A stretch of DNA of 60,354 nucleotides from an uncultured Gammaproteobacteria bacterium. GTDB lineage: Bacteria; Patescibacteriota; Patescibacteriia; Magasanikbacterales; GWA2-37-8. Below the pieces are notes generated by a model that did no database searches, was not told the origin of the DNA, and saw nothing but the letters and a program-made list of their open reading frames with translations. The DNA lies in assembly GCA_964641245.1 (NCBI GenBank), contig CAZXML010000006.1:1-60354 (forward strand), given 5' to 3'. Below, piece after piece: positions 3,001 through 57,216 of the stretch (positions are counted from its first letter, which is position 1; each line of letters opens with the position of its first letter). The position numbers and the translations under genes were made by a program.

Positions 3001-3230
3001 TGCCTCCGCACTTTCCAATAACATTATCATTGCGGATGGTGCCGGAAACCAAAGAATAAATATAAACGCAAACGGCTACGCTAGTTTCGGCACTACCACC
3101 CCCGTTGCTCAATTTTCTATTCAAGGGTTCGCCTCCAGCAGTCCTATTTTTAATGTAGCTTCATCTTCTCTTTCCAGTTTATTTAGAATTTTAGCTAATG
3201 GCAATGTTGGTATAGGATCTTCCACTCCTG
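1..3230 (+). repeat. Long in-frame tandem duplication inside the fibre gene: units 1-1266 and 1267-2544, plus a partial third unit from 2545 to about 3230.
   Basis: gacaaattctgcttataaaatcaacggtacaaatgtcatcattgcccaacc recurs at positions 1, 1267 and 2545. The stretch ~1083-1322 is essentially identical to ~2360-2600, as shown by identical frame-shifted ORF translations in the track (1083..1325 versus 2304..2603). Confidence 0.9.
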
Positions 3231-5260: not shown

Positions 5261-5275
5261 AGATTTCGGTATTAT

Positions 5276-12246: not shown

Positions 12247-12340
12247 GTTCACTGCGTTCAATGCAGGCTCTGAATGTAATGAAGGATCTCTGTCTCAATC
12301 GCTGAACGGACAGAGATTCTTCGCTTCACTCAGAATGACA
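12237..12340. repeat. TTGTCAT...ATGACA nested palindromic element, GATCTCTGTC/GACAGAGAT subtype, with a degenerate left arm.
   Basis: ctgaatgtaatgaaggatctctgtc ... gacagagattcttcgcttcactcagaatgaca. It lies between the pilM stop and the pilN start. Confidence 0.75.
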
Positions 12341-14569: not shown

Positions 14570-14586
14570 ATATTTAATTTGGATAA

Positions 14587-14640
14587 CACGAATGCGCTTG
14601 AGCGCCACGAATGATGCAAATATTATTCGTATTATTCGTG
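14587..14640. repeat. Word-stutter hairpin in the pilB-pilC spacer.
   Basis: cacgaatg occurs twice on the left and tattattcgt / attattcgtg on the right. It is followed by the ggcc-atca-ggcc mini-hairpin. Confidence 0.5.
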
Positions 14641-42950: not shown

Positions 42951-42982
42951 ACCAGCCTTCGCTAAAGCTTCGGCACGGCAAG
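42951..42982 (+). repeat. Copy B of the 31-nt CCTTCGCTAAAGCTTCGGCnnGGCAAG motif.
   Basis: accagccttcgctaaagcttcggcacggcaag. Confidence 0.7.
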
Positions 42983-42984
42983 TG

Positions 42985-42993
42985 TGGTATAAT
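42985..42993 (+). promoter_or_regulatory. Extended -10 element, TGgTATAAT, ending 6 nt before the ATG of the pilin-like gene.
   Basis: tgGTATAAT at 42985-42993; ATG at 43000. Confidence 0.4.
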
Positions 42994-42999
42994 ATCTCC

Positions 43000-44793
43000 A
43001 TGCTTGTCAAAAACACAAAAGGCTTTTTGCTTATGGAAGTTCTGGTTGCGTCCGGACTGTTTTTGTTATTTGCTATTGGAATATATGGAACAACAACTCT
43101 TGTTTTTAAAATTGTGTACTCATCTCGGTTGCGAATTTTGGAAACCGCGCTTATCAGCGAGCGCCTGGAAGTGGTTCGCAACCTGCCTTTTGATAATGTG
43201 GGAATAATTAACGGCGTTCCCAGCGGTGTTCTTCCGTACACCACCACCACTGTCCGCAACGGCGTTACATTTGTATTAATTACCACGGTTAGAAATATAG
43301 ACGACCCGTTTGACGGCACCATCACCAGTACTCCGGCCGATACTTCTCCGGCTGATTATAAATTAGTGGAAATATCCGCAATTTGTCAAAATTGCCGCCA
43401 ACTAAATTCTGTCATTCTTAGCACCAGAGTTGCCCCAAAAAACTTAGAGGGCGCCAGTCAAAACGGGGCGTTATTCATTCATGTTTTTGATTATAACGGC
43501 CTGAATATTGCGGGCGCTACCGTATCTGTCACAAATACCGCCACCAATCCGCATACTATTATTACAGATACAACCGACAATTCGGGCATGGTTCAGATTA
43601 TTGGCGCGCCAACCGGAACTCAAAGTTATCACATCCGAGTTTCAAAGGCCGGATACTCCAGCGACTATACGGTTTCATCCACCGCCCAAGTTCCCAGTCC
43701 GGTTAAGCCGCCGTCAAATGTTGTCAGTCAGTCAATTACCGAAATAAGTTTCCAAATCGATGTGGCGGGCGCTTTAAATCTAAATACCGTCAATGCCGGT
43801 TGCGCCACGGTGGCCAGCGTCCCTCTTTTAGTTCACGGCGAAAAAATTATCGGCACCAGCCCGACTTCTTATAAATTTTCACAAAGCATCACCACCAATG
43901 GCAGTGGAAATTATAATTTTTCTAACATGGAATTTGATAAATATCTTATATCCGTGTTGGGCACAACCTATGATATTGCCGGTTCAATTCCCATGTTGCC
44001 CGTAGATTTGACTCCCGGGCTGACTCAAAATGCATTCTTAATAATGCGGGCGATCAGCGGAATTTCTTTGCTGGTTCAGGTAAAAGATGCCGGTACCGGC
44101 CTGCCGTTATCCGACGCCGCCGTAAGAGTTTACAATGGAGCGGGTTATGACCAGACAATATCCACCGGAGTCGGTTATCTTCGGCAAACGGACTGGTCCG
44201 GAGGAAGCGGCCAGGTAAATTATACGGACACCGCCAAATATTTTAGCGATAACGGCAATGTTAATGTTAGTTCGGCCGGCGACATAAAATTAAAAAAAGC
44301 CGGTGGCGACTATTTAAACAGCGGATGGCTGGAATCATCCTCCATAGATTTTGGCGCGGCCGCAAATTACAACAATATTATTTTTTCGCCGCTTTCTCAG
44401 CCGTCACGAACCGGGGTTAATCCGATATCTTTTCAAATCGCAACGGCCAATTCAGAAAATCCCAACCAGTGGGTTTTTCTTGGGCCCAACGGCACATCCA
44501 CCACATATTACACAGCTACCAGCACTAATATAAACAGCGTACACAACGGCGACCGCTACCTGCGGTATAAAGTATTTTTAAACACCGCCGACGATTCATA
44601 CACCCCCACACTTTCAGAGGTTTCTTTTACCTATACCAACAGCTGTACGCCTCCGGGGCAAAGCTATTTTAACGGTTTGCCTTCCGGAGATTATACTATA
44701 GATGTCAGCCGGACAGGTTATTCCACCAAAAGCACGGCCGACACAATTACCAGCACTTCACAAATTCTAATCAACCTTTCTCCAAGCCAATAA
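43000..44793 (+). CDS. Large prepilin-type (class III signal peptide) protein; minor pilin / tip-adhesin candidate.
   Basis: MLVKNTKG|FLLMEVLVASGLFLLFAIGIY carries the G/F-x-x-x-E prepilin cleavage motif. It is followed by repeated beta-rich, carboxypeptidase-regulatory-like segments. Confidence 0.65.
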   Translation: MLVKNTKGFLLMEVLVASGLFLLFAIGIYGTTTLVFKIVYSSRLRILETALISERLEVVRNLPFDNVGIINGVPSGVLPYTTTTVRNGVTFVLITTVRNIDDPFDGTITSTPADTSPADYKLVEISAICQNCRQLNSVILSTRVAPKNLEGASQNGALFIHVFDYNGLNIAGATVSVTNTATNPHTIITDTTDNSGMVQIIGAPTGTQSYHIRVSKAGYSSDYTVSSTAQVPSPVKPPSNVVSQSITEISFQIDVAGALNLNTVNAGCATVASVPLLVHGEKIIGTSPTSYKFSQSITTNGSGNYNFSNMEFDKYLISVLGTTYDIAGSIPMLPVDLTPGLTQNAFLIMRAISGISLLVQVKDAGTGLPLSDAAVRVYNGAGYDQTISTGVGYLRQTDWSGGSGQVNYTDTAKYFSDNGNVNVSSAGDIKLKKAGGDYLNSGWLESSSIDFGAAANYNNIIFSPLSQPSRTGVNPISFQIATANSENPNQWVFLGPNGTSTTYYTATSTNINSVHNGDRYLRYKVFLNTADDSYTPTLSEVSFTYTNSCTPPGQSYFNGLPSGDYTIDVSRTGYSTKSTADTITSTSQILINLSPSQ

Positions 44794-44795
44794 AT

Positions 44796-45407
44796 ATGTT
44801 TAGCCGTTTAGACAATAAGGGTATTTCGCTCTTGGAGCTGGTAGTGGGAATAGGAATTTTTATACTGCTTTTTGGCGCGGTAATAGATATGTTTTTATTT
44901 ACCTGGAGAGGAAACGCAATCGTTTGGGAACAGCTTTCCACCCAAAATGAAGGCAGAAAGGCGACACAGGATTTCAGCAACGAGCTAAGAGAAGCGACCG
45001 CATCCAGTATCGGCGCCTATGCCATAGAGTCGGCCACTGGCACGCAGATGGTTTTTTACAGCAACATAGACGCCGATTCGTTTGTGGAAAGAGTAAGGTA
45101 TTTTGTTGCCAGCACAACTTTAAAAAAAGGGGTAATAAAACCAACAGGCAATCCGCTTACTTATAATTCCAGCACCGAGAGCATTGTTACCATTGCCAAT
45201 GATGTTGCCAACAACGGCATAACCAATGTATTTACATATTACGACAACAATTTTACCGGTTCGGAAAGTCCTTTGACAGGCGCAATTGATGTCACCAAAA
45301 TACGGGTTGTCAAAATGAGTTTAAGGTTGGAAGAAAACCCAAACCTTTCGCCGGTGCCTTTTTATATAGAATTAAAAGTAATGATAAGAAATTTGAAAGA
45401 TAATTGA
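44796..45407 (+). CDS. Prepilin-type minor pilin.
   Basis: MFSRLDNKG|ISLLELVVGIGIFILLF (G-x-x-L-L-E motif). Confidence 0.65.
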   Translation: MFSRLDNKGISLLELVVGIGIFILLFGAVIDMFLFTWRGNAIVWEQLSTQNEGRKATQDFSNELREATASSIGAYAIESATGTQMVFYSNIDADSFVERVRYFVASTTLKKGVIKPTGNPLTYNSSTESIVTIANDVANNGITNVFTYYDNNFTGSESPLTGAIDVTKIRVVKMSLRLEENPNLSPVPFYIELKVMIRNLKDN

Positions 45408-45420
45408 GTTGAGCGCAGTG

Positions 45421-45507
45421 AAGTATTAAGTATCAAGTATTATGGGGTGAACGGCCGCGTTTGTCTGCTTAATACTTAATACATAATACTTGATACATAA
45501 TAATACT
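45421..45507. repeat. AT-rich word-stutter hairpin (GTATTAAG / GTATCAAG words).
   Basis: aagtattaagtatcaagtattatg ... cttaatacttaatacataatacttgatacataataatact. Confidence 0.75.
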
Positions 45508-46917
45508 ATGCAAATAGAAAAACTTAAAAAATTAAAAAAACTATTTTCTCGCGACAGGCGCGGCAATATCCTGCTGTTCGTGATGGTTTTTGGCACTATT
45601 TGTCTTTCTATTATTATTGTGGGAGTGGCCGGATATGCTATTTCTGAAAACAGGGCGTCCTTAAAAAAACATAACAGAGAAATGGCCTTTGAGATTGCCG
45701 ACGCCGGCGCGAATTATTATCGTTGGCATTTAGCTCACGACAAAAGCGACTATTACGACGGCAACGGAACCAGCACGCCCGGTCCGTATATCCATGATTA
45801 TTACGACAAAGACGGTAACGCCATTGGACAATATTCTTTAACGATCACGCCTCCGCCGGTCGGATCATCCGTAGTCACAATAGAATCAACCGGATGGTTG
45901 AATATCCAGCCGGGTAGCCGGCGGGTGATAAAAATCAGAGTTGCTTTTCCGTCTGTTACCGACTACGCCTTCTTAACAAATAGCGACGCCTGGATCGGCA
46001 ATGAAGAAGAAGTGCACGGCCGTTTTCACGCCAATGGGGGCATTCGTTTTGACGGGACTAATGACGCTTCGGTGGCCAGCGCCGTTTTGACTTATTACTG
46101 CCAGCCAATACATGGCGGCGGATGTAATAATACATCCAAGCCGGGCATTTGGGGTGATGGCGGACCAACGGAGTTATGGAGTTTCCCTGTTCCCGCAAAA
46201 GATTTTACAGAAATCACCGCGAGTCTGGCGCAAATGAAAACAGCCGCAGAGTCGGACGGCGTTTATTTATCTTCTTCAGGTGAACAGGGGTGGGCGATAA
46301 CTTTTACGGGTGATGGCAATTTTGCCGCCCAGAAAGTTATTACCACGGATTGTTATGATACCAAGGACATTGGCGAGAAAAATTGGGTTGTGCGCTGTAC
46401 AGATGCGTCAACATACGGGCCGACCACTACTTATTCAATTCCGGCGAACGGTTTTATTTATGTAGACGATATGGTTTGGGTTAGCGGGGTAGTTAAAGGA
46501 AAAGCGACCATTGGCGTATCAAACGGTAAATCAATTACAATTGGCGGCAACATAACTTATGTTGCAAAAGACGGGACTGATGTTTTAGGGTTAATCGCCG
46601 AACAAAATATTTTGGTCGTTAAAAACTCTCCGGATGTTCTGGAAGTTGACGCGGCTTTAATCGCCCAAAATGGAGCGGCCAAAAGATATGATTATTCAGG
46701 CGGCGGCGGAGATGACAGAAAAACCAGTATTACAATATATGGATCCATAGCTTCAAATGGTATATGGACATGGAGTTGGATAAACCTGGGCGGAAATTTA
46801 GTGTCCGGGTATAGAGATACATTTGCGACCTACGACGTAAATTTAACCTACGGTCCGCCGCCCGGATTTCCAATTAGTTCACAATATAATTTGATTAGTT
46901 GGGAAGAGGTGAATTAG
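45508..46917 (+). CDS. PilX-like pilus-associated protein with an N-terminal membrane anchor.
   Basis: The start is moved to MQIEKLKK (ATG 45508). RRGNILLFVMVFGTICLSIIIVGVAGYA is a hydrophobic anchor. The gene follows two prepilin genes. Confidence 0.5.
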   Translation: MQIEKLKKLKKLFSRDRRGNILLFVMVFGTICLSIIIVGVAGYAISENRASLKKHNREMAFEIADAGANYYRWHLAHDKSDYYDGNGTSTPGPYIHDYYDKDGNAIGQYSLTITPPPVGSSVVTIESTGWLNIQPGSRRVIKIRVAFPSVTDYAFLTNSDAWIGNEEEVHGRFHANGGIRFDGTNDASVASAVLTYYCQPIHGGGCNNTSKPGIWGDGGPTELWSFPVPAKDFTEITASLAQMKTAAESDGVYLSSSGEQGWAITFTGDGNFAAQKVITTDCYDTKDIGEKNWVVRCTDASTYGPTTTYSIPANGFIYVDDMVWVSGVVKGKATIGVSNGKSITIGGNITYVAKDGTDVLGLIAEQNILVVKNSPDVLEVDAALIAQNGAAKRYDYSGGGGDDRKTSITIYGSIASNGIWTWSWINLGGNLVSGYRDTFATYDVNLTYGPPPGFPISSQYNLISWEEVN

Positions 46918-46960
46918 CCCTTGCCGACTGGTAGATTTTTGATATAATGGACAATGGTAA

Positions 46961-47088
46961 TTGTCATTGCGAGCAAAGCGAAGCAATCCCACAGTCCGTT
47001 AGTGCCAACAATGGGATTGTCCCGATAGTGAATCGAGGATCCTCGACTGCAGTCGGGACCGCGTCGCTACGGCTCCTCGCAATGACAA
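46961..47088. repeat. TTGTCAT...ATGACAA element, TTGCGAG / AATCCCA subtype, with an extra TCCCGA...TCGGGA hairpin.
   Basis: ttgtcattgcgag...gcaatccca-...-tgggattg-tcccgatagtgaatcgaggatcctcgactgcagtcggga-...ctcgcaatgacaa. Confidence 0.85.
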
Positions 47089-47113
47089 CTAGAAATTCAT
47101 AATTTATATCGCT

Positions 47114-47980
47114 ATGTCCAAAATCCGCAAGCTCGTCATCCCCGTCGCCGGCCTTGGTACTCGTTTTTTGCCAGCCACCAAAGCCCAGCCAAAAGAAATG
47201 CTGCCTATTGTGGATAAGCCTATAATCCAGTATGTGGTAGAAGACGCGGTAAGATCGGGAATTACCGATATTATTATGGTTACCGGTCCCAGCAAGCGGG
47301 CGGTGGAGGATCATTTTAGTCCTAATTACGAATTGGTTAATTTGTTAAAAAAACAGGGAAAAGAAGATCTGGCGGAAGAGGTAAAGAAAATAGCCGACAT
47401 GGCCAATTTTATTTTTATTCGCCAGAAAGGGCCGTATGGCAATGGTACGCCGGTGCTGTGCGCCAAAGATGTGGTTGGCGACGAGCCGTTTGCCGTAATG
47501 TGGGGGGACGAGTTTTTTTACGCGCCGCAAAAACCGCAACTAAAACAACTAATGGAAGTCTATGAAAAATTTGGCGAACCAGTTCTTACTGCTTACGAAG
47601 TAGATGATAAAGGAACGGAAAAGCACGGTATTATAGACGCGCTGGAGGTGGAAGAGGGTATATATAATGTAAGAAATATTATAGAAAAACCCGGGCCAAA
47701 AAAAGCGCCTTCCCGTTTGGCCAGTTTGGGCGGATTTATTTTTACCCCGGATATTTTTGAAGCTTTGGAAAATACCAAATTAGGCAAAGACGGAGAATTA
47801 TGGTTGGTAGACGCCATTTTCAAACTCTTAAAAAACCACCCAATTTATGCCAAAAAAATAGACGGCATATATTATGATACCGGCTCCAAACTCGGATACC
47901 TCAAAGCCAATGTAGATTTTGCCCTGCGCGATAAAAAATTGGCAGATGAATTTAGAAAGTATTTGCGGAGTGTGGTATAA
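47114..47980 (+). CDS. galU: UTP-glucose-1-phosphate uridylyltransferase.
   Basis: KLVIPVAGLGTRFLPATKAQPKEMLPIVDKPIIQYVVEDA. Confidence 0.9.
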   Translation: MSKIRKLVIPVAGLGTRFLPATKAQPKEMLPIVDKPIIQYVVEDAVRSGITDIIMVTGPSKRAVEDHFSPNYELVNLLKKQGKEDLAEEVKKIADMANFIFIRQKGPYGNGTPVLCAKDVVGDEPFAVMWGDEFFYAPQKPQLKQLMEVYEKFGEPVLTAYEVDDKGTEKHGIIDALEVEEGIYNVRNIIEKPGPKKAPSRLASLGGFIFTPDIFEALENTKLGKDGELWLVDAIFKLLKNHPIYAKKIDGIYYDTGSKLGYLKANVDFALRDKKLADEFRKYLRSVV

Positions 47981-48017: not shown

Positions 48018-49403
48018 ATGGTTTCTATGTCTAAAAAGTTATTATTAATTTTCAGTTTCATTCTAGCCTTACCTCTGGCCGGCTTTGGTTGCCAGGGTCT
48101 TTCCCAGCAACAGGTCGCGGCTACCAAACCAATTACATTGGAATTTTGGACAGTTTTTGACGATGTAGATGCTTTGCAGGCGCAGATAGCTAAATACAAA
48201 GCCGAACGTCCTTATTTAACCATCAATTTAAAGCAACTCACCGCCGGGGAGTTGTATCCGCGTCTTCTAGAGGCTCTGTCCGAAGACCATGGACCGGATA
48301 TTATTTCCGTCCGCAATCGCTGGATGCGTTTTTATCAGCCCAAATTGGCCGCCATGCCATCGGGTTTTTCCGACACCACCGTGGTTGTAAAAAAAACCAC
48401 TTTGGGCACGGAAACTATTGTTAATACGGTGGCGCAAACTCTGCCGACCGCTCTTCAGGTAGATAAAGAATATGTTCAGGCGGTTAAGAATGACGTAATT
48501 ATAGATGGCAAAATTTACGGTTTGCCCTTGTCTTTAGAAAACATGGCTTTGTTTTATAACAAAGACTTGCTGGATAAAGCGGGTGTAGCTGAACCGCCAA
48601 AAAACTGGGAAGAATTTCAGGCGGCGGTAAAAAAGCTTACCAAGTTTGATAAAAAAACCGGAAAAATTTTACAATCCGGCACTGCCATGGGAACCGGAAA
48701 CAACATTCCCGGATTTGAGGATTTGCTCTATATTTTATTCAAACAAAGCAACGTCCCTTTTGTAAATAAAAACGGCGCGGCTACTTTCCAAAGTGGTGTA
48801 CCCAATCTGGCCAACCCCGCTATGTCGGTTATGAATTTTTATACCGATTTTGCCAATTCCGCCCGCGACACCTATACTTGGAACGAAGAAATGGGTAATG
48901 CTTTAGATCAGTTTGTAAACGGTTCGCTGGGTTTTTTCTTCGGCTACAGCTATCATTATCCGGTTATCAAAGCCCGCGCCCCGCAATTAAACGTGGCTAT
49001 TTTACCAATGTTGCAACTCAATCCGGAAACTCCGGTTAATGCCGCTAATTATTGGGTGCAGACTGTTTTAGACAAATCAAAAAATAAAAATGAAGCCTGG
49101 GGTCTGCTCAACTTCTTAACCCATTCCAAAACCACCAAAGATTATCTAGACCAATCCGGCCGCCCGTCCGCTCTGCGTACCTATATAGCCGGGCAACTAG
49201 ACAACACCGAACTTTATCCATTTGTATCGCAAGTTTTAATTTCCGACAGTTGGTACAAAGGTAAAGATTACGAAACCGCCGTAAAAGCCCTAGGCGATAT
49301 GACACACGAATGGTTGTTGCCACCGGTACAGATAGGCGCGGAATTACAATACCGACAAGAAGTCTTAAATCGCGCCGCCGCGAAGTTTAATCAGAGTTTA
49401 TAG
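48018..49403 (+). CDS. ABC transporter extracellular solute-binding lipoprotein (family 1, sugar-type).
   Basis: The signal peptide is KKLLLIFSFILALPLAGFGC, with a lipobox. The 460-aa periplasmic-binding-protein length and the YGLPLSLENMALFYNKDLL block fit the family. An alternative start is at 48027. Confidence 0.65.
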   Translation: MVSMSKKLLLIFSFILALPLAGFGCQGLSQQQVAATKPITLEFWTVFDDVDALQAQIAKYKAERPYLTINLKQLTAGELYPRLLEALSEDHGPDIISVRNRWMRFYQPKLAAMPSGFSDTTVVVKKTTLGTETIVNTVAQTLPTALQVDKEYVQAVKNDVIIDGKIYGLPLSLENMALFYNKDLLDKAGVAEPPKNWEEFQAAVKKLTKFDKKTGKILQSGTAMGTGNNIPGFEDLLYILFKQSNVPFVNKNGAATFQSGVPNLANPAMSVMNFYTDFANSARDTYTWNEEMGNALDQFVNGSLGFFFGYSYHYPVIKARAPQLNVAILPMLQLNPETPVNAANYWVQTVLDKSKNKNEAWGLLNFLTHSKTTKDYLDQSGRPSALRTYIAGQLDNTELYPFVSQVLISDSWYKGKDYETAVKALGDMTHEWLLPPVQIGAELQYRQEVLNRAAAKFNQSL

Positions 49404-49427
49404 GCGATCATTCTGACCGCGCACCAT

Positions 49428-49507
49428 TTGTCATTCTGAGCATAGCGAAGAATCTCTGTCTGTTCGGCGATTGAGACAGAGATCCTTCATTACATTCAGG
49501 ATGACAA
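49428..49507. repeat. TTGTCAT...ATGACAA element, ATCTCTGTC/GACAGAGAT subtype.
   Basis: ttgtcattctgagcatagcgaagaatctctgtc-tgttcggcgattga-gacagagatccttcattacattcaggatgacaa. Confidence 0.9.
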
Positions 49508-49516
49508 TAAAAAAAT

Positions 49517-49960
49517 ATGACAAAAACTTCCAAAATTATATTTATTTTTGCAATTCTAGCCATAACTTTTTTTAATGCCGGTCAGGTTTTGGCGCAAACC
49601 GGTAGTAGCGAACTAATAGATAGTAAGTTTATTCCGCAATGCGCGCTAGAAAATCCCACTGGCGGAGAAGCGGGAAAGGCCAAAGAAGGCGAATGCCGAA
49701 ACATTAGCATCTTTGTAGTATTGCTCATACACCTCGCCAATTATTTGTTCAGCATTGTCGGCGCTTTGGCTTTGTTATTTTTTATTTATGGCGGTTTTAC
49801 CTTAATTTTATCCCGAGGCGCCACCGAGCAGGTAAAAAAAGGAAAAGATATTATGGTAGCGGCAATTATTGGGCTGGTAATTGTTTTTGGCGCCTATATG
49901 TTGGTAGGATTTTTGGGGGATGCTGTGGGGCTGAAAGGCGGCTATAAATTAACAATGTAG
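49517..49960 (+). CDS. VirB2/TrbC-like (T4SS-pilin-like) small membrane protein, paralog 1 (most divergent).
   Basis: The signal peptide ends in VLAQ. A Cys pair (CALEN...EGEC) is present. TM1 is followed by the loop YGGFTLILSRGATEQVKKGKD, then TM2 with IIGLVIVFGAY. Confidence 0.55.
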   Translation: MTKTSKIIFIFAILAITFFNAGQVLAQTGSSELIDSKFIPQCALENPTGGEAGKAKEGECRNISIFVVLLIHLANYLFSIVGALALLFFIYGGFTLILSRGATEQVKKGKDIMVAAIIGLVIVFGAYMLVGFLGDAVGLKGGYKLTM

Positions 49961-49966
49961 TAGTTT

Positions 49967-50827
49967 ATGAAAAATTTGAAAAAAAACTTAGTCAGTCGCG
50001 GATTTACAATTTTAGCTTTATTCATTTTATTTTTTATATTGCCGGTAAATAGAGCAAAAGCAGCTTGTGACCCCGCAGTACAAAGTTGCGCCCCTGTTGA
50101 TTATTACTATTACAGTGAAGACACGTTAACTAATTGTTATTGCCATTCTTTGCAAGCGGGTAGTCAGGCCGAGGCAGAAGATAAATTAGCAGGCCTCACC
50201 CCAATACCAAGGAAATGTGGTGTAGATCAGGCAGTGCCATCAGAAAGTTCGGAAACAATTCCAGAGGTAACAGAAGGAGCCTGTCCGGCAGAAGATGGTT
50301 CCACCCAACTTATCTATTATTATTGCATAGTTATTGAAGTTATCGATGATGAATCAAGTGGATCAAGTCAGCTTAGTCAGGGTAAGTGCTTGGATTTTAC
50401 CAGCACAAATGACTCCAACGCTTTTGATCAAGCGCGCACTCTTTGCGCCGGTGGTACTACCAAGTTGATAGCTAATACAGTCCAATGGGATAAAGGTAGA
50501 TGCCAATTACAGGGAGAATTGGGGAGCGAGGACAAGCCTAAAGGATCACTTGCAGAATTAAAACGTTATGCCAAATCATTAAACAAGGCAAAATTTTCCG
50601 GTCCGGTGGATGTTATCAGCCGGTTCATAAACATGCTGTTGGCATTTATTGGTTCCATATCTTTAGTTTTGTATATTTTTGCCGGATTTTTGTGGATGAC
50701 GGCTTCCGGAAATGCTGAAAAAGTAACCAAAGCAAAAAGCATAATGGTTTGGACTACTCTAGGTGTAGTGGTTATGTTGGCCAGTTACATGTTAGTAAGT
50801 TTTATATTTGATTCTTTGAAATTGTAA
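49967..50827 (+). CDS. VirB2/TrbC-like protein, paralog 2, with a ~190-aa Cys-rich N-terminal decoration.
   Basis: The signal anchor ends in NRAKA. Twelve Cys residues lie in the inserted domain. The C-terminal core is FAGFLWMTASGNAEKVTKAKSIMVWTTLGVVVMLASY. Confidence 0.6.
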   Translation: MKNLKKNLVSRGFTILALFILFFILPVNRAKAACDPAVQSCAPVDYYYYSEDTLTNCYCHSLQAGSQAEAEDKLAGLTPIPRKCGVDQAVPSESSETIPEVTEGACPAEDGSTQLIYYYCIVIEVIDDESSGSSQLSQGKCLDFTSTNDSNAFDQARTLCAGGTTKLIANTVQWDKGRCQLQGELGSEDKPKGSLAELKRYAKSLNKAKFSGPVDVISRFINMLLAFIGSISLVLYIFAGFLWMTASGNAEKVTKAKSIMVWTTLGVVVMLASYMLVSFIFDSLKL

Positions 50828-50839
50828 TTTATGTCCTTC

Positions 50840-51208
50840 ATGAAAAAGACAATTTTTATAATTATTTTAAGCCTTGCATTTATTTTTAGCATGTCTGGCC
50901 GTGCTTTAGCAGTTCCCGCGCCGGCGGATCCAAACATGGTTAAGTTAGATAATCCATTAGAAGGAAATAAAACCGAAGCCACTCAAATCATATCCAAAGT
51001 CATCACAACAGCCCTTGGCATAATCGGCGCCCTAACCTTATTAATGTTGGTGTATGGCGGGTTCCAGTGGCTCACCTCAGCCGGCAATCCGGAAAAAGTA
51101 AAAATGGGCACGCAAACTATGGTTTGGGCTATAATTGGTGTGCTTTTGGTCTTTGCCAGCTATATGTTGTTATCAACCTTTACAAATTATCTAACTGGAA
51201 AGGTATAA
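50840..51208 (+). CDS. VirB2/TrbC-like protein, paralog 3.
   Basis: The signal peptide ends in ALAVP. The core is YGGFQWLTSAGNPEKVKMGTQTMVWAIIGVLLVFASY. An alternative start is at 50831. Confidence 0.65.
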   Translation: MKKTIFIIILSLAFIFSMSGRALAVPAPADPNMVKLDNPLEGNKTEATQIISKVITTALGIIGALTLLMLVYGGFQWLTSAGNPEKVKMGTQTMVWAIIGVLLVFASYMLLSTFTNYLTGKV

Positions 51209-51281
51209 ACAGGTGTGATATAATACTAAATAATTACAAATAACGAAATATGCAAATTTCAATTCGAAAGGGGGTGAAAAT

Positions 51282-51665
51282 ATGATGAAACTGAAACAAA
51301 TGTTTGCTGTTATGGCAACCTTGTCTATATTAGCCCCGGTCGTAGTAATGGCGCAAACAGCGCCAATTACCGCAGAAGATTTAGGTATTCAATATGGCGC
51401 GGCAACAGGTTTGGGCACTAAAGATATCCGCGTTACTATAGCTTCTATTATCAAAACAGCCATGGGCTTACTTGGTATTGTGGCCGTAGTAATCGTTTTA
51501 ATCGGTGGTTTTAAATGGATGACCGCCGGTGGTAACGATGAACAAGTTGGTGAAGCCAAGAAATGGATATTTTCCGGTGTTATTGGTTTAGCAATTATCT
51601 TGTCCGCCTACGCGTTGGCGACATATGTAATTAATAGTTTAGTTACAGCTACTACCTCACCATAA
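51282..51665 (+). CDS. VirB2/TrbC-like protein, paralog 4.
   Basis: A strong RBS (aagggggtg) is present. The signal peptide ends in VMAQ. The core is IGGFKWMTAGGNDEQVGEAKKWIFSGVIGLAIILSAY. Confidence 0.65.
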   Translation: MMKLKQMFAVMATLSILAPVVVMAQTAPITAEDLGIQYGAATGLGTKDIRVTIASIIKTAMGLLGIVAVVIVLIGGFKWMTAGGNDEQVGEAKKWIFSGVIGLAIILSAYALATYVINSLVTATTSP

Positions 51666-51677
51666 TTATTTTTCCTT

Positions 51678-51706
51678 GCAGGGGGTTCGCGCGCGCAACC
51701 CCCTGC
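51678..51706 (+). terminator. GC-rich hairpin after paralog 4.
   Basis: GCAGGGGGTT-cgcgcgcgc-AACCCCCTGC. A second hairpin, CCCCGC-ttgg-GCGGGG, lies at ~51733-51748. No clear T-run follows either. Confidence 0.4.
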
Positions 51707-51777
51707 CCAGGAAAGCTCGGCACCTGTAATTCCCCGCTTGGGCGGGGTAGGGGCGGGTTGGTAGGTGTCCATTAGTC

Positions 51778-51847
51778 TGTCATTCTGAGCAGAGCGAAGA
51801 ATCTCTTAAACAATGAGAGGGATCCTTCATTTCATTCAGGATGACAA
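51778..51847. repeat. TGTCAT...ATGACAA element, short variant.
   Basis: tgtcattctgagcagagcgaagaatctct-taaacaa-tgagagggatccttcatttcattcaggatgacaa. Confidence 0.85.
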
Positions 51848-51861
51848 AACCAAAATAAAAT

Positions 51862-52227
51862 ATGACAACACTCAAAAAAATATTTCTATTTTTAGCGGTA
51901 GTGGGGTTAGTAGTTCCGTCTTTTGCATTTGCAGATGAATTTGGTTTAGATGAAGCTGCCGGGGGAACGAAATTAATACAGGTTAAAGATACGCAAACGG
52001 ATATACCGAATTTAATCGGCAACATCGTCGGCGTGGCCCTATCATTTTTAGGCGCCATATTTTTTCTTTTAATTTTATACGCCGGTTTTTTATGGATGAC
52101 CGCTTTTGGTTCGTCAGAAAAAACCGACAAAGCTAAAGGCATATTAGAGCACGCGGCTGTAGGTTTGCTGATAGTTTTGGCCGCCTATGCGATTTCCAGG
52201 TTTGTGTTTACCGCTCTAGGCGTGTAA
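51862..52227 (+). CDS. VirB2/TrbC-like protein, paralog 5.
   Basis: The signal peptide ends in FAFA. The core is YAGFLWMTAFGSSEKTDKAKGILEHAAVGLLIVLAAY. Confidence 0.65.
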   Translation: MTTLKKIFLFLAVVGLVVPSFAFADEFGLDEAAGGTKLIQVKDTQTDIPNLIGNIVGVALSFLGAIFFLLILYAGFLWMTAFGSSEKTDKAKGILEHAAVGLLIVLAAYAISRFVFTALGV

Positions 52228-52309
52228 GGTGGCAGTTCAGCTCAAACTCCAACCAACCCGTTTAATATATTTAATTTTAAACAGTTGTTGAATAATTTAT
52301 AAACTGAGT

Positions 52310-52834
52310 ATGCGTAAAATACTTTTTACAACCATAATAATGTTAGCATTGTCAACACCGTTTTTTGTCTCGGCCCAGGCGCCATGCCCACCAGGCAAAT
52401 CCGGTCTACAATGTGCTGGCACGATTTTGGATCAATCCGCAAACACCAGCAAAACCGGACTCTCGGCCGATTTGGGAGACACCGTCGCCACAGTAATAAA
52501 AGCCGTATTGGCTCTGGTTGGCACCATATTTTTAATCCTCACTATTTACGCCGGAATTTTATGGATGACAGCCCAAGGAAACGAAGAACAAGTTACCAAG
52601 GCCGTGGGCATAATTAAAGCTTCAGTTATTGGTTTGATTATTATTATGTCCGCTTACGCCATTACTTTCTTTGTAACCAGTAAGTTGACGGGAGCGACCG
52701 GCACATCAAGCCAAAATACTCCTAACTCAAATCAACTCGGTTGTTGTTATACCGCTTCAACCGATCAGTTTACTTCGCGCCTAGAATCAGATTGCCAAGG
52801 CGCTCAAGAGACATGGGGCGCCGAGCCATGTTAA
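52310..52834 (+). CDS. VirB2/TrbC-like protein, paralog 6, with a Cys-containing C-terminal tail.
   Basis: The signal peptide ends in VSAQA. The core is YAGILWMTAQGNEEQVTKAVGIIKASVIGLIIIMSAY. The tail is ...QLGCCYTASTDQFTSRLESDCQGAQETWGAEPC. Confidence 0.65.
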   Translation: MRKILFTTIIMLALSTPFFVSAQAPCPPGKSGLQCAGTILDQSANTSKTGLSADLGDTVATVIKAVLALVGTIFLILTIYAGILWMTAQGNEEQVTKAVGIIKASVIGLIIIMSAYAITFFVTSKLTGATGTSSQNTPNSNQLGCCYTASTDQFTSRLESDCQGAQETWGAEPC

Positions 52835-52840
52835 AATTAT

Positions 52841-53209
52841 ATGAAAAAATATTTTCTCATTTCTCTGTTAGCGTTTAATCTGTTGCTCGTTCCGGCGGCA
52901 AATGTTTACGCGCAAACAGATCTTTCTCAAGACATTGCCCAAAAGAGCGGTTATGGTCCGGTTACCGGCTCTAGCCTTTCGGAAACCATTGGCAAAATTA
53001 TAAAAATAATCTTGGGATTTTTAGGAACTATATTTTTAGCGTTAACCGTTTACGCGGGCGTGTTATGGATGACGGCGGCGGGAAACGAAGAACAAGTCAC
53101 AAAGTCATTGGGAATTTTAAAAACAGCCGTAATCGGGCTGATTATCATAATCGCCGCTTATAGTATTACCTATTTTGTAATGCTTAATGCCTTCGCCCTC
53201 ACAGCCTAG
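52841..53209 (+). CDS. VirB2/TrbC-like protein, paralog 7.
   Basis: The signal peptide ends in VYAQ. The core is YAGVLWMTAAGNEEQVTKSLGILKTAVIGLIIIIAAY. Confidence 0.65.
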   Translation: MKKYFLISLLAFNLLLVPAANVYAQTDLSQDIAQKSGYGPVTGSSLSETIGKIIKIILGFLGTIFLALTVYAGVLWMTAAGNEEQVTKSLGILKTAVIGLIIIIAAYSITYFVMLNAFALTA

Positions 53210-53215
53210 TGGGCA

Positions 53216-53302
53216 TCTCTCCCCTTTTAGGGGAGAGACAGAGAGAGGGGTATGCGGTGAACGACAATACCCCCACCCTGCCCTCCCCCTAAAAGGGGGA
53301 GG
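53216..53302. repeat. Cluster of three G/C-homopolymer-rich hairpins between paralogs 7 and 8.
   Basis: TCTCTCCCC-tttta-GGGGAGAGA (53216-53238), GGGGTAT...ATACCCC (53247-53273), and CCTCCCCC-taaaa-GGGGGAGG (53282-53302). Confidence 0.7.
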
Positions 53303-53330
53303 AGAAACAAAAAGTGAATTAAATTTTTTT

Positions 53331-53810
53331 ATGAAAAAAATAACCTTTTTTATATTCTGTCTCGTTTCTTTATTATTTATTTTGCATTCTTCATTCGCGC
53401 TCGCCGCGACCCCTTCTGAAGAAGCCCTGGAACAGTTAAATGCGGCTGCTGGAGCAGGCGGAGCAAATATTGCCGGCTCCGGGCCAATGGATCCGCGCAT
53501 TATTGTGGCCATAATCATCCGGTCGCTCTTGCAGCTTATTGGTATAGTTTTTGTTGCGCTGACTGTTTATGCCGGCTTTTTGTGGATGACGGCTGGCGGA
53601 GAAGAAGAAAAAACAAGCAAAGCAAAAAAATTATTATCCAATGGGGTGATTGGCTTGGCTATAATTTTATCCGCTTACACTATTTCGTATTTTATTTTCC
53701 GGTCACTTTTGGGCGCTACCGCCAGCAATGGCAACCCCTTTGGTTATGGAAGTACTTCTAATATTACTAATTATGGCCCTAATGCCAATGATTATAATTA
53801 TTACAAGTAG
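53331..53810 (+). CDS. VirB2/TrbC-like protein, paralog 8, with an Asn/Tyr/Gly-rich C-terminal tail.
   Basis: The start is moved to MKKITFFIF (ATG 53331), because the track ORF start at 53187 reads through hairpin repeats. The core is YAGFLWMTAGGEEEKTSKAKKLLSNGVIGLAIILSAY. Confidence 0.65.
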   Translation: MKKITFFIFCLVSLLFILHSSFALAATPSEEALEQLNAAAGAGGANIAGSGPMDPRIIVAIIIRSLLQLIGIVFVALTVYAGFLWMTAGGEEEKTSKAKKLLSNGVIGLAIILSAYTISYFIFRSLLGATASNGNPFGYGSTSNITNYGPNANDYNYYK

Positions 53811-53815
53811 AAGGT

Positions 53816-54940
53816 TTATATTTTTGGCGTAAAAATATTTTTCAATATAATCTCGCCAGCATTTGGGTGAGATTTTTTTTGAATGAGAGTTGGATTTGAA
53901 AGTAGGGTTTGGATTTTTTTGGCCAGATCATCGCTTGAATTCGCTCTTAAGCCGTAATGATTTTTTTCCAGATACGTCGCGTTGTAATCTTCCTGTCCTG
54001 GGATAGGATTTATAATTATAATAGGCTTTTGCAAAAACATAACCTCGGAAACGGTTAGTCCGCCCGCCTTGCCAACTATTACATCCGCAATCCGCATCCA
54101 TTCGTCTATATTATCGGCATTTTTTAAAATAGTAAAATTCCTTTGTCCGGCATCCTTTATATCTTCCAAATCCTTAAAAAGTTCTTGATTAGTATTGCCT
54201 GAAATAGCCACCACATTCACATTCTTATTTTGAGAAAAAATTGCCGGTACCGCGTCTTTGGCGCTGATTTTACCGCTGGAGATGGGCATGATTAAAATTG
54301 TTGGCCAGTCATTATTTATATTCAGTTTCCTTTTTAATTCAGCAGTATTTTTGACGGCAAAAAAACTGGCGTGAAGAGGCAAACCGCTGGCGATGCTTTT
54401 TATGCCTTTTTTTTCCAGTTCAATTTTTGTTTCTTCGCTGGCGACAAAAAAATTGCGTACACAAGGGGCCAGCCAGATTTGATGAGCGTGATAATCGGTA
54501 ATTACCGTGTCCAGAGGTATAGAAAAATTTTTAGGGAATAAGAGTTGAGGAGAAAACTGGGTGGAAACTATATAATCCGGCCGGAATTCCTCTATTTTTT
54601 TTAAAAATTTCCTCGCGCCTAATTTAAAAAACGGTCTAAGACCTATCAATATTTTCTGTGTGAAAGGTTTGTCGGTTAAGTGGTAGATAAATTTATAAGT
54701 TCTGGGGATGTGGTTGATGAATGTGTTGTAGGATGAAACCGAAAAAGCGCGGGCAAACCCGGAAAGATAATCCGCCAAATCTATATGAAGCACCTGAACA
54801 TCGGGGTATAGTTTTTGAGAAGCTAAACGCAATGCCTCGGCCGCGCGGAAATGTCCGGAGCCGGTGGAGCACGAAACAATAAGAAGTTTTTTCCCGCCAA
54901 AGCGGGATCCCGCCTCATGGCGGTGATAAATGTTGGACAT
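53816..54940 (-). CDS. GT28-family glycosyltransferase (MGDG-synthase / diacylglycerol glycosyltransferase-like).
   Basis: KKLLIVSCSTGSGHFRAAEAL N-terminal motif and C-terminal GKAGGLTVSEVMFLQKPIIIINPIPGQE. The start is moved to ATG 54940, because the 54985 start overlaps tRNA-His. Confidence 0.65.
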   Translation of the reverse strand: MSNIYHRHEAGSRFGGKKLLIVSCSTGSGHFRAAEALRLASQKLYPDVQVLHIDLADYLSGFARAFSVSSYNTFINHIPRTYKFIYHLTDKPFTQKILIGLRPFFKLGARKFLKKIEEFRPDYIVSTQFSPQLLFPKNFSIPLDTVITDYHAHQIWLAPCVRNFFVASEETKIELEKKGIKSIASGLPLHASFFAVKNTAELKRKLNINNDWPTILIMPISSGKISAKDAVPAIFSQNKNVNVVAISGNTNQELFKDLEDIKDAGQRNFTILKNADNIDEWMRIADVIVGKAGGLTVSEVMFLQKPIIIINPIPGQEDYNATYLEKNHYGLRANSSDDLAKKIQTLLSNPTLIQKKSHPNAGEIILKNIFTPKI

Positions 54941-54943
54941 ATT

Positions 54944-55019
54944 TGGGGTGCCTAATGGGAGTCGAACCCATGTTGCGAGATCCACAATCTCACGTAATAA
55001 CCGTTATACCATAGGCACC
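54944..55019 (-). tRNA. tRNA-His (anticodon GTG) with encoded G-1 and CCA.
   Basis: Minus strand: G-GTGCCTA...TGAGA-TTGTGGA-TCTCG...ATGGG-TTCGACT-CCCAT-TAGGCAC-C-CCA. Confidence 0.85.
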
Positions 55020-55036
55020 ATATCGACGACGTCCTG

Positions 55037-55108
55037 TGTTCCCAGTAGGAATCGAACCTACACATCCAGCTTAGAAGGCTAGTGTCCTATCCATTAAACG
55101 ATGGGAAC
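55037..55108 (-). tRNA. tRNA-Arg (anticodon TCT).
   Basis: Minus strand: acceptor GTTCCCA/TGGGAAC. Anticodon arm is CTAGC-CTTCTAA-GCTGG. T arm is GTAGG-TTCGATT-CCTAC. Discriminator is A. Confidence 0.85.
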
Positions 55109-55357
55109 ATTGCTATTTTTTGAATTAATCAATCGTTCAATTGCCTTTCTGCTTTTCCATTTTTTAATTTGGTATTCTCTACTTTGTGCATCGGAGCGAT
55201 TTTGATATGGCTCTGTATATACTAACATACACGGCAATTTACTTTTCGTCGAGAAAACCCTGCCTCGGTCATGGTCGGCTTTCCGGCTAACCAGGTCGCT
55301 CGTGCTTCCAATGTAGTATGAACCATCGCTTAACTTGATGATGTATACGTGGTACAT
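55094..55357 (-). CDS. Small GIY-YIG nuclease (UPF0213/YhbQ-like). Its last 5 codons and stop codon lie inside tRNA-Arg.
   Basis: MYHVYIIKLSDGSYYIGSTSDLVSRKADH...REYQIKKW carries the GIY-(10)-YIG motif, the Arg, and the Glu. The start is moved to ATG 55357, because the upstream part of the track ORF reads through a palindromic repeat. Confidence 0.7.
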   Translation of the reverse strand: MYHVYIIKLSDGSYYIGSTSDLVSRKADHDRGRVFSTKSKLPCMLVYTEPYQNRSDAQSREYQIKKWKSRKAIERLINSKNSNVPIV

Positions 55358-55373
55358 ATGGAAGAGTAGTGTC

Positions 55374-55436
55374 TCCCGACTTTGCCTTTGGCGGCAAAGT
55401 CGCGGATCCTCGATTTTGCTCGAAGCAAAATCGGGA
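55374..55436. repeat. TCCCGA...TCGGGA nested palindromic element, related to the inner hairpins of 17810 and 46961.
   Basis: tcccgaC-TTTGCC-tttggc-GGCAAAG-tcgcggatcctcga-TTTTGCT-cgaa-GCAAAA-tcggga. Confidence 0.75.
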
Positions 55437-55458
55437 CTATCCATTAAACGATGGAGAC
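55437..55458 (-). pseudogene. Orphan duplicate of the 5' acceptor/D-arm segment of tRNA-Arg(TCT).
   Basis: ctatccattaaacgatggagac matches 55087-55108 (ctatccattaaacgatgggaac) at 20 of 22 positions. Confidence 0.7.
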
Positions 55459-55547
55459 CCGAGACTTTTGACTCGTTCGCTATCATATACTATTTTTACA
55501 GATTAATCAAGGTGTGGTATCATATGGGGTAGTTTATCATAATTTGT

Positions 55548-55895
55548 ATGTATAGAAGAATTTTTATATTTCTGGTTTTTACTCTAATAATTCTTGGTCC
55601 TGCTCGTCCGGCATTGGCTCAATTTGGCTTAGATAAAAGCGGCCCAACGGCGGGTTATGGAGAGACTAATATTTATTCCACCATTAGCACTGTCATCAGC
55701 GTTGTACTATCCGTTGCCGGTTTGGTTTTTTTGGCTATTATGTTTTATGCCGGCCTGCGCTGGATGACTGCCCGCGGCAATGAAGAATTTATCTCCAAGG
55801 CAAAAGGAGCTATGTTTGGAGCGCTGATCGGGTTCATTTTAGTCACAATTTCTTATGGCGCTTCCGCCTTTATTTTCAGCAAGTTGATTAATTAA
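55548..55895 (+). CDS. VirB2/TrbC-like protein, paralog 9.
   Basis: The signal peptide ends in ALAQ. The core is YAGLRWMTARGNEEFISKAKGAMFGALIGFILVTISY. Confidence 0.65.
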   Translation: MYRRIFIFLVFTLIILGPARPALAQFGLDKSGPTAGYGETNIYSTISTVISVVLSVAGLVFLAIMFYAGLRWMTARGNEEFISKAKGAMFGALIGFILVTISYGASAFIFSKLIN

Positions 55896-55896
55896 T

Positions 55897-55998
55897 TTGT
55901 CATTGCGAGGAGGTCTTGGCGACCGACGAAGCAATCCCAAAGTACTGGTTGGTACTAACAATGGGATTGCCACGTCGCTACGGCTCCTCGCAATGACA
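55897..55998. repeat. TTGTCAT...ATGACA element, TTGCGAG / AATCCCA subtype.
   Basis: ttgtcattgcgagg...gaagcaatccca-aagtactggttggtactaaca-atgggattgc...cctcgcaatgaca. Confidence 0.85.
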
Positions 55999-57053: not shown

Positions 57054-57133
57054 TTGTCATTCTGAGCAAAGCGAAGAATCTCTGTCCGTTCGGCGATTGA
57101 GACAGAGATCCTTCATTGCATTCAGGATGACAA
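57054..57133. repeat. TTGTCAT...ATGACAA element, ATCTCTGTC/GACAGAGAT subtype. Its loop and right arm are nearly identical to the copy at 49428.
   Basis: ttgtcattctgagcaaagcgaagaatctctgtc-cgttcggcgattga-gacagagatccttcattgcattcaggatgacaa. Confidence 0.9.
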
Positions 57134-57216
57134 AAAAACAAATCAGTAATTAATTAAAAGAAGTTGGTTTGAGGACAAATAGACCGTAATTGGTCTGTAG
57201 CTCTCAAATCATCTTC

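Follow-up and report, generated by a model that had tools for sequence, protein, structure and literature searches.

The closest described relatives of the locus reported here are the pilin arrays of Patescibacteria. Type IV secretion systems (T4SSs) of monoderm bacteria are normally without a pilus, and a 2025 review describes the Patescibacterial systems as unique among them for their potential to make conjugative pili (PMC12857230). In a search of 3,035 Patescibacteria genomes with PF18895, PF04956 and the CONJScan profiles, Quinonero-Coronel et al. (2025; PMC12102498) recorded arrays of 2-11 VirB2-like pilins in 383 assemblies, with a mean identity of 25% and a maximum of 54%. Their count includes the Sec-secreted array of TM7x and that of Southlakia epibionticum ML1, a VirB2-like pilin array that lies inside the T4SS cluster and is essential (Wang et al., 2023, PMC10633639; PMC12857230). 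The subject of the present analysis is an array of nine such pilin open reading frames (ORFs) at positions 49517-55895 of contig CAZXML010000006.1, in a stretch of 60,354 nt that will be referred to, in its full length, as the window. The array is not a new kind of system; the locus type is already described for Patescibacteria, and the present array is a further case from the ABY1/Magasanikbacteria. What is new, relative to the available part of the published survey, is a context far from virB4 and a tie to genes for GalU, a solute-binding protein (SBP) and a glycosyltransferase, together with the anatomy of the array itself.

All nine ORFs, which an earlier note on this DNA had picked out as same-strand pilin-like genes, were found in the ORF list on the + strand, with eight genes contiguous and one detached. 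They are listed here with their scores against PF18895 (T4SS_pilin), for which the gathering cut-off is 26.6 bits.

49517-49960, + strand: pilin paralog 1, 147 aa; PF18895 37.5 bits; two cysteines in the N-terminal ectodomain; loop without W-M-T
49967-50827, + strand: pilin paralog 2, 286 aa; PF18895 28.0 bits; N-terminal ectodomain of ~185 aa with 10 cysteines
50831-51208, + strand: pilin paralog 3, 125 aa; PF18895 49.3 bits; TrbC 19 bits (sub-threshold); NF045849 35.9 bits
51282-51665, + strand: pilin paralog 4, 127 aa; PF18895 44.5 bits; candidate major subunit
51862-52227, + strand: pilin paralog 5, 121 aa; PF18895 34.0 bits
52310-52834, + strand: pilin paralog 6, 174 aa; PF18895 32.9 bits; C-terminal tail with 4 cysteines, N-terminal part with 2
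52841-53209, + strand: pilin paralog 7, 122 aa; PF18895 35.7 bits; fused to a paralog-8 orthologue in the proteins P0001-P0004
53331-53810, + strand: pilin paralog 8, 159 aa; PF18895 33.1 bits; Gly/Asn/Tyr-rich C-terminal tail
55548-55895, + strand: pilin paralog 9, 115 aa; PF18895 28.3 bits; apart from the other eight

Two of these start positions require comment. For paralog 3, the start given in the earlier note (50840) is the second in-frame ATG, and the one at 50831 is also possible, each being used by one public gene call. The longest ORF of paralog 8 begins at 53187, and its extra N-terminal part is translated palindromic DNA, the false extension having its source in a double hairpin at 53216-53302.

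The arrays of the published survey (PMC12102498) resemble the present one in family (PF18895), in phylum, in their tandem arrangement of 2-11 genes, sometimes with an interposed non-pilin gene, in an identity of about 25% between copies, and in a chromosomal locus without a relaxase. However, the emphasis of the published cases is on arrays that lie in or adjoin virB4 clusters, mainly in Saccharimonadia and Microgenomatia, whereas the window array and 79 ABY1-type loci have no virB4 within 10 kb and follow the order GalU, SBP, pilins, glycosyltransferase, pilin. The VirB2/TrbC pilins (PF04956; the A. tumefaciens T-pilus, PDB 8cue/8fai; RP4 TrbC) share the signal peptide, the two-helix hydrophobic hairpin and the short loop. 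Against these, the window array belongs to a monoderm, comprises nine paralogs and not one, does not adjoin virB3/virB4, and has long variable ectodomains.

Two further systems invite comparison. Mbov_0395 and MMCAP2_0565 (NF045849), from the integrative and conjugative elements of Mycoplasma, are also small two-helix pilin-like proteins of a T4SS in a wall-poor monoderm. The Mbov_0395-type protein is, however, a single gene in a mobile element, whereas the window has a chromosomal array, all nine members of which score below the NF045849 cut-off of 40 bits (15.5-35.9 bits, with nearly the whole 80-residue model covered). The VirB2 clusters of Bartonella, Anaplasma and Rickettsia likewise contain several divergent tandem copies, and in Rickettsiales the T4SS genes are scattered over the genome (both as cited in PMC12102498). 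These organisms are diderm intracellular animal pathogens in which the paralogs are thought to serve antigenic variation, whereas the window paralogs are positionally orthologous across species, which suggests that they have fixed and distinct roles.

Family assignment and protein architecture

The nine ORFs are divergent members of the T4SS_pilin (PF18895) / VirB2-TrbC superfamily. All nine exceed the PF18895 cut-off (28.0-49.3 bits), and the precomputed annotation of a JGI (Joint Genome Institute) contig agrees. A hidden Markov model built from the core of the nine paralogs retrieves exactly those nine ORFs from the window and no others, which is far beyond chance. Of 100 family members, 43 also match the TrbC/VirB2 profile PF04956 at E<=0.01, the best at 2e-6. 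The VirB2/TrbC-type identity that was the main call of the earlier note is therefore supported, by the PF18895 membership of all nine and by the relatives that match PF04956. The family as a whole has 80,687 representatives at 50% identity (E<=1e-3). When its profile was searched against the sequences of the PDB, the sole match was A. tumefaciens VirB2 (8cue), at a non-significant E of 3.9.

Each of the nine proteins begins with a leader in which 2-3 K/R and a hydrophobic h-region precede an A-x-A-type site (residues 22-32), and each has two hydrophobic segments after it. Both calls are heuristic, made from leader features and hydropathy, and they agree in all nine cases with the Sec-type signal peptide and two helices proposed earlier. 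An AlphaFold2 model of paralog 4, made from a 100-sequence alignment, has a leader helix at residues 3-22 and hairpin helices at 49-81 and 86-125, and the predicted local distance difference test (pLDDT) score of the hairpin is mostly >90, with block means of 85-95. Besides Met1, the only invariant columns of the alignment are G82, G93, G101, E104, G119 and Y127. Among the nine window paralogs the mean column identity is 24%, and pairs are 22-63% identical, counting the core only. A nearly invariant loop motif had been described for the array; it is less invariant than claimed, as paralog 1 is without W-M-T and paralogs 2 and 4 are without the Tyr.

A holin-like role had also been suggested, and the proteins could in principle be holin-like or bacteriocin-immunity-type small membrane proteins. 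They are small, they have two transmembrane helices, and paralog 9 has a weak match to Holin_9 (E = 0.048), the only hit that points this way. However, all nine are confident PF18895 members with cleavable-looking leaders, no phage, lysis or bacteriocin genes are found nearby in the window, and the locus is chromosomally conserved across many species. This is the most improbable of the readings considered here, and it is effectively refuted by the PF18895 assignment and the genomic context.

Elsewhere in the family the hairpin occurs in longer proteins. P0131, P0132, P0150 and P0157 are polyproteins with 6 to 17 tandem hairpin domains; P0132 (6 hairpins) and P0150 (17), the sequences of which were read, have one N-terminal leader and no internal leaders, and for this reason look like real fusions and not like read-through of arrays. 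A second class consists of giant proteins of ~890-4,340 aa with a single pilin-type domain (L072 7266-15748, L078 7245-16678, P0198, P0212, P0238 and others). In P0198, P0212 and P0238 this domain, comprising leader and hairpin, is N-terminal. The pilin module in such giant proteins may anchor surface proteins or place them in a filament.

Positional orthology and unequal subunits

Related loci were identified by scanning one genome per GTDB species with a four-sequence alignment, which returned more than 530 related stretches. Together with the window, the 81 loci that were fetched make 82 sources, and the 79 related loci discussed below consist of the array plus up to 10 kb per side. Nearly all of the 79 have 5-13 pilin ORFs. 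Each window paralog has its best match at the same ordinal position in L003, L004, L005 and L008, with 43-84% identity (57-70% for paralog 1), and mostly also in 15 remoter loci. The number of loci, out of 79, that have a reciprocal best match ranges from 18 to 69 between paralogs, with paralogs 4 and 6 each reaching 69, and collinearity is perfect in 38 of the 52 loci that have at least four such matches. Even the detachment of paralog 9, with eight pilins followed by a glycosyltransferase and then a ninth pilin, is repeated in L004, L005, L008 and many other loci. Judged by these sequence comparisons, the array arose long ago and has kept its gene order, each member having an orthologue at the corresponding position in other species.

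There is little sign of recent exchange between the copies. The best DNA repeats within the array are only 63-80% identical, and no near-identical repeats, conversion tracts, invertible segments or promoter-flanking inverted repeats were detected in it. All nine pilin proteins recur with 100% identity on the 21 kb contig Ga0136847_10639805 of JGI metagenome 3300010391, and the first six are identical over their full lengths on a separate 3.5 kb contig of the Logan assembly of run SRR6155509, which reaches no further. A phase-variable filament, as once proposed for this locus, is not supported, given that near-identical repeats and invertible elements are missing.

A related idea is that the nine genes encode alternative pilins, a repertoire serving host range or antigenic variation, of which one or a few would be used at a time to match different host strains or to escape host defences. 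Most of the difference between the paralogs is indeed in the exposed parts at either end, the ectodomain of paralog 2 is without a detectable homologue, and several promoter-like sites and hairpin elements could split the array into units with separate expression. PMC12102498 proposes that such arrays allow adaptation to different host strains, and a like idea exists for the Bartonella/Anaplasma VirB2 paralogs. However, fast turnover would predict lineage-specific duplications, and what is found instead are positional orthologues in a conserved order, the repeat divergence and absence of conversion tracts and invertible segments noted above, and array proteins unchanged between the window and both of the other contigs, as far as each of these reaches. 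In addition, the natural fusions described below imply that paralogs 7 and 8 are present jointly. A repertoire is thus unlikely, and is placed second among the alternatives to a T4SS pilus. Positional orthology, collinearity and the lack of near-identical repeats favor nine non-redundant roles over a recently expanding or recombining variation cassette.

Conservation is distributed unevenly along the proteins. Among the five closest species, identity is 56-84% in the hairpin core, as against 15-62% for the mature N-terminal parts and 0-41% for the C-terminal tails. A homologue search with the 185-aa N-terminal ectodomain of paralog 2 found nothing beyond the query, and every orthologue at position 2 is long, with 272-317 aa in the four closest species. 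The number of cysteines in the extensions is always even, with 2 in paralog 1, 10 in paralog 2 and 2 + 4 in paralog 6, and the orthologues contain further cysteine-rich N- or C-terminal domains. Even cysteine counts and fast-evolving ends would fit a topology in which both termini are outside, as is predicted by a cleaved leader followed by two membrane helices.

Paralog 4 is the most conserved of the nine, with 70-84% identity to its orthologues, compared to 77-87% for ribosomal protein S15 and 81-88% for PNPase. It has the shortest extensions, and the only strong Shine-Dalgarno sequence of the array, AAGGGGGTG, is located 7 nt before its ATG. Two elements flank the gene.

51196-51224, + strand: promoter-like site ahead of paralog 4, TGGAAA-17-TATAAT with TG, 10/12 consensus matches; a pattern match only
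51778-51846, + strand: palindromic hairpin element between paralogs 4 and 5, -27.5 kcal/mol, z = -3.9

The same element terminus is found at the paralog 4/5 junction in L003, the nearest species. Given its conservation, the spread of its orthologues, its sole strong Shine-Dalgarno sequence, the promoter-like site, the hairpin that follows it and its short extensions, paralog 4 is probably the major subunit.

Another feature concerns paralogs 7 and 8. In four proteins from separate clusters (P0001-P0004), a paralog-7 orthologue (74-82% identity) is fused to a paralog-8 orthologue (64-76%), with loss of the second leader. In the window, the junction that is fused in those proteins is occupied by a structured element.

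53216-53302, + strand: GC-rich double hairpin between paralogs 7 and 8, -51.5 kcal/mol, z = -5.3

Fusions such as these, like the polyproteins, would be possible only if the linked ends share a membrane side, and they suggest that the hairpins stand side by side in one assembly. Of the roles that had been suggested earlier, a multi-subunit filament fits best with the positional orthology, the natural fusions and the presence of one highly conserved, well-expressed-looking paralog.

Genomic context and the missing secretion machinery

The window is a piece of ordinary chromosome, with genes for S6/SSB/S18-like proteins, EF-P, a class II ribonucleotide reductase, S15, an NYN-domain protein and PNPase, as well as eight tRNAs. 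Its host belongs to the Patescibacteria. The nearest loci come from metagenome-assembled genomes (MAGs) of Parcubacteria/Magasanikbacteria, in the GTDB class ABY1, as judged by synteny and by a PNPase identity of 81-88% in the four closest loci. Among genomes, the best matches came from Parcubacteria bacterium Gr01-1014_13, with 75% identity to paralog 7, and from MAGs of Candidatus Magasanikbacteria, and Table S1 of PMC12102498 places the genomes of these relatives in ABY1. Dozens of Third Party Annotation (TPA) MAGs titled 'uncultured Gammaproteobacteria bacterium' (L005-L008, L013-L015 and others) have syntenic Magasanikbacteria-type arrays, and those labels are evidently wrong.

In relatives that have the array, published tables place the secretion machinery at other sites in the genome. 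Table S1 of PMC12102498 records VirB4 in five of six named array carriers, namely Gr01-1014_13 and four of the five Magasanikbacteria genomes, and most ABY1 genomes have VirB4 (PMC12102498). In Magasanikbacteria GW2011_GWA2_37_8, VirB4, TrsD and VirB3 are genes 794-796 and the coupling-protein homologues are genes 222, 223 and 823, with no pilin row near virB4 in the available part of Table S3 (PMC12102498). The array of this genome (locus L009) is KKQ40371-KKQ40379, annotated as 'hypothetical'. These accessions are absent from the same part of Table S3, where another protein, KKQ40626.1, is the sole VirB2 entry under this genome and where every PF18895-based row is virB4-proximal. This suggests that arrays far from virB4 are under-recorded in the published survey, and that surveys centered on virB4 undercount them. 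Since relatives with a syntenic array have virB4-trsD-virB3 elsewhere, the missing machinery most simply, and probably, reflects the limit of the window. Its absence from the window is not evidence for a machine-less system.

Taken as a whole, the reading of the array as the subunits of a T4SS pilus is assigned a probability of roughly 0.6. Several points weigh against it. To our knowledge, none of the T4SSs of Patescibacteria has been observed to carry a pilus. At the array itself, the expression signals are consensus matches only. Profile comparisons gave a divided answer, in that all nine paralogs pass PF18895 and all nine fall below the PF04956 gathering threshold of 27.9 bits, the best scores being 19.1 and 19.0 bits for paralogs 4 and 3; the matches of these two paralogs cover the whole profile, and homology to VirB2/TrbC is still likely because 43 of the 100 relatives do match PF04956. 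A Foldseek comparison of the paralog 4 model with the PDB gave no match at E<=0.001, with generic helical hairpins only and no VirB2, which is uninformative since simple helical hairpins match many unrelated proteins. No VirB4, VirD4, VirB6, VirB3, TrsD or VirB11 was found among the 50 window ORFs scanned with Pfam (some 23 smaller ORFs, of 77-367 aa, were read by eye only), and the earlier statement that the 60 kb encode no VirB4, VirB6, VirB11 or VirD4 holds for the window. Nor was a virB4 or coupling-protein gene found within 10 kb of the array in any of the 79 related loci, and consequently the link to VirB4 is supported by homology and by the presence of both in the genomes of relatives, and not by neighborhood. 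Finally, one array carrier, RIFCSPHIGHO2_02_FULL_47_14, is listed without VirB4 in Table S1 of PMC12102498, although this MAG may be incomplete.

The search of the 79 loci applied Pfam to every recurrent large neighbor and to every ORF of at least 500 aa with a Walker A motif. The candidates for VirB4 or a coupling protein that it raised were rejected as PPDK, PBP1, GT2, DnaA, Wzy, PilB (twice), FtsH, UvrA, SMC, IF2, ComM and DUF2079, and a 1223-aa ORF in L078 had no Pfam match.

The genes that do accompany the array are of a different kind.

47114-47980, + strand: GalU-like UTP-glucose-1-phosphate uridylyltransferase; TIGR01099 322 bits (cut-off 326.8); conserved upstream neighbor
48018-49403, + strand: orphan SBP_bac_1 solute-binding protein with a lipoprotein-like leader; PF01547 E = 2e-25; directly upstream of paralog 1
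53816-54940, - strand: glycosyltransferase of the monogalactosyldiacylglycerol (MGDG)-synthase/GT28 type, UgtP-like (diglucosyl-diacylglycerol synthase); PF06925 and PF04101; NF010135 164 bits (below its cut-off)

The SBP is the commonest neighbor (52/82 sources). A gene upstream of the first pilin is present in 64 sources (63 related loci and the window), and in 41 of these it is the SBP that lies immediately 5'. GalU adjoins the array in 42/82 sources. The glycosyltransferase after the eighth pilin is GT28/UgtP-like in 29 loci, on either strand, and a GT2 enzyme in others, and the recurrent order is glycosyltransferase, ninth pilin and then S15-NYN-PNPase. The order GalU-SBP-array persists where all other flanks differ.

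This neighborhood bears on the leading alternative, in which the proteins would be T4SS-independent membrane or envelope proteins, serving as ectodomain anchors or as a glycolipid module with GalU, the SBP and the glycosyltransferase, and reusing the pilin fold without polymerization by VirB4. The steadiest neighbors of the array are indeed those three genes, none of the 79 loci has a virB4 within 10 kb, one array-carrying relative is listed without VirB4, and the family includes proteins of 2,000-4,300 aa with one N-terminal pilin domain, like anchored surface giants. However, the family is homologous to VirB2/TrbC, VirB4 is present in most ABY1 genomes, and, according to PMC12102498 and PMC10633639, the same family is found inside virB4 clusters, and is essential, in Saccharimonadia and Microgenomatia. 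Synteny that is conserved within one class may also mean inheritance and not function. This alternative is therefore considered unlikely, if somewhat less so than a repertoire of pilins.

The window also contains genes of a type IV pilus, the nearest filament genes to the array.

14674-16407: PilB
13463-14608: PilC
12354-13460: PilM
11641-12261: PilN
42982-46917: three ORFs, two with prepilin-like N-termini (by eye), which complete the type IV pilus set

The pilin-like ORFs of the last group end at 46917, in keeping with the 2.6 kb distance upstream of the array that had been stated earlier. It is conceivable that the array is a partner of this machinery and not of a T4SS. In the window and about 21 loci the three ORFs lie directly 5' of GalU-SBP, pilB, pilC, pilM and pilN are all in the window, and in L022 and L063 the gene for a PilB ATPase is no more than 4 kb away from the array. 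However, all nine paralogs have type I (A-x-A) leaders and two later helices, and are without the class III prepilin signal G|F-x-x-x-E that is needed for assembly; and the gene link vanishes in remoter loci, where GalU-SBP-array persists. Partnership with the type IV pilus is thus very improbable.

The minus-strand block that interrupts the array was correctly described in the earlier note as a GT28 gene, tRNA-His, tRNA-Arg and a GIY-YIG gene. The GIY-YIG gene (55094-55486, - strand) was not found in most related loci. An exact 18-nt direct repeat, CTATCCATTAAACGATGG, at 55087-55104 and 55437-55454 brackets most of this gene, and its first copy overlaps the 5' end of tRNA-Arg (55036-55108, - strand), an arrangement that resembles an insertion footprint beside a tRNA.

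Palindromic intergenic elements are a general feature of the window, and one of them precedes the array.

49428-49507, + strand: palindromic hairpin, 10 nt before the paralog 1 start codon, -37.6 kcal/mol, z = -6.1

It belongs to a set that resembles miniature inverted-repeat transposable elements (MITE) or repetitive extragenic palindromes (REP), at 46958-47091, 49428-49507, 51778-51846, 55897-55998 and 57054-57134, with termini also at 12328, 27055/27231, 28403, 31964 and 43410. The termini, TGTCATT[CG][TC]GAGC...AATGACA, have 13 matches against 0.11 expected by chance. As hairpins the elements measure 70-135 nt, with folding energies of -27 to -57 kcal/mol, and five are located at gene boundaries in or around the array. 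They give rise to spurious ORFs, such as 49408-49563 (- strand) and an N-terminal extension of S15 at 55897. Except at the paralog 4/5 junction in L003, they are mostly missing from related species, and an Rfam scan returned tRNAs only and no family for them.

Other observations concern the wider surroundings of the arrays. Positions 89-8320 of the window encode two very large secreted-looking proteins (1723 and 1014 aa) with Peptidase_S74 (endosialidase chaperone), fn3, CarboxypepD_reg and SdrD_B domains, which are candidate surface adhesins. In one sub-clade (L058, L060, L064, L070, L079 and L080), the layout is an SBP, one pilin, four small conserved genes (~219, 183, 128 and 119 aa), a GT2 enzyme, a 537-aa protein, six pilins, a conserved 204-aa protein and PPDK, and the 537-aa and 204-aa proteins have no Pfam match. 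In L035, L040, L045 and L067 the array is within a few genes of dnaA, in agreement with the published observation that the T4SS genes of Patescibacteria are frequently located close to the origin of replication.

Proposed mechanism and significance

If the array encodes the subunits of a T4SS pilus, the pilins would be exported by Sec and their leaders cleaved, so that both termini would face outward and the K-rich loop inward. A distant VirB4-type ATPase complex, comprising virB4-trsD-virB3 and a coupling protein as in the relatives, would then extract and polymerize the pilins into a pilus or a conduit towards the host cell. Paralog 4 would be the shaft or major structural subunit. The other eight paralogs would be non-redundant minor or decorating subunits, which would display their fast-evolving and often cysteine-rich ectodomains for host contact. 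These subunit roles are held with less confidence than the T4SS pilus itself. Classical VirB2 pili contain stoichiometric phospholipid, and, more speculatively, GalU, the orphan solute-binding lipoprotein and the UgtP-like glycosyltransferase may supply a glycolipid or glycan partner of the filament.

A bolder variant is that GalU, the SBP, the eight pilins, the lipid glycosyltransferase and the ninth pilin form a self-contained ABY1 module. Such a module would produce a filament of the VirB2 type, heteropolymeric and associated with glycolipid, or else a scaffold for surface display. It would work independently of the distant virB4 or be only loosely coupled to it, and its subunits would have fixed roles, with paralog 4 as the shaft, paralogs 7 and 8 as a pair, and paralog 2 as a large cysteine-rich adhesin. 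This variant is doubtful, and more so than either the T4SS-independent envelope proteins or the repertoire of pilins, although if true it would represent a pilus architecture not seen in any characterized T4SS.

The Patescibacteria are a large and mostly uncultured branch that lives attached to host cells, and the T4SS is essential in the one species tested. It is because monoderm T4SSs normally have no pilus that the VirB2-like pilins of this branch were singled out for attention in the recent review (PMC12857230). The locus described here adds an ABY1/Magasanikbacteria example with a testable structure: a fixed set of nine members with positional orthologues, of which one is the likely major subunit and two are naturally fused in relatives, exposed ends that evolve fast, and a recurrent tie to UDP-glucose/glycolipid enzymes and an orphan binding protein.

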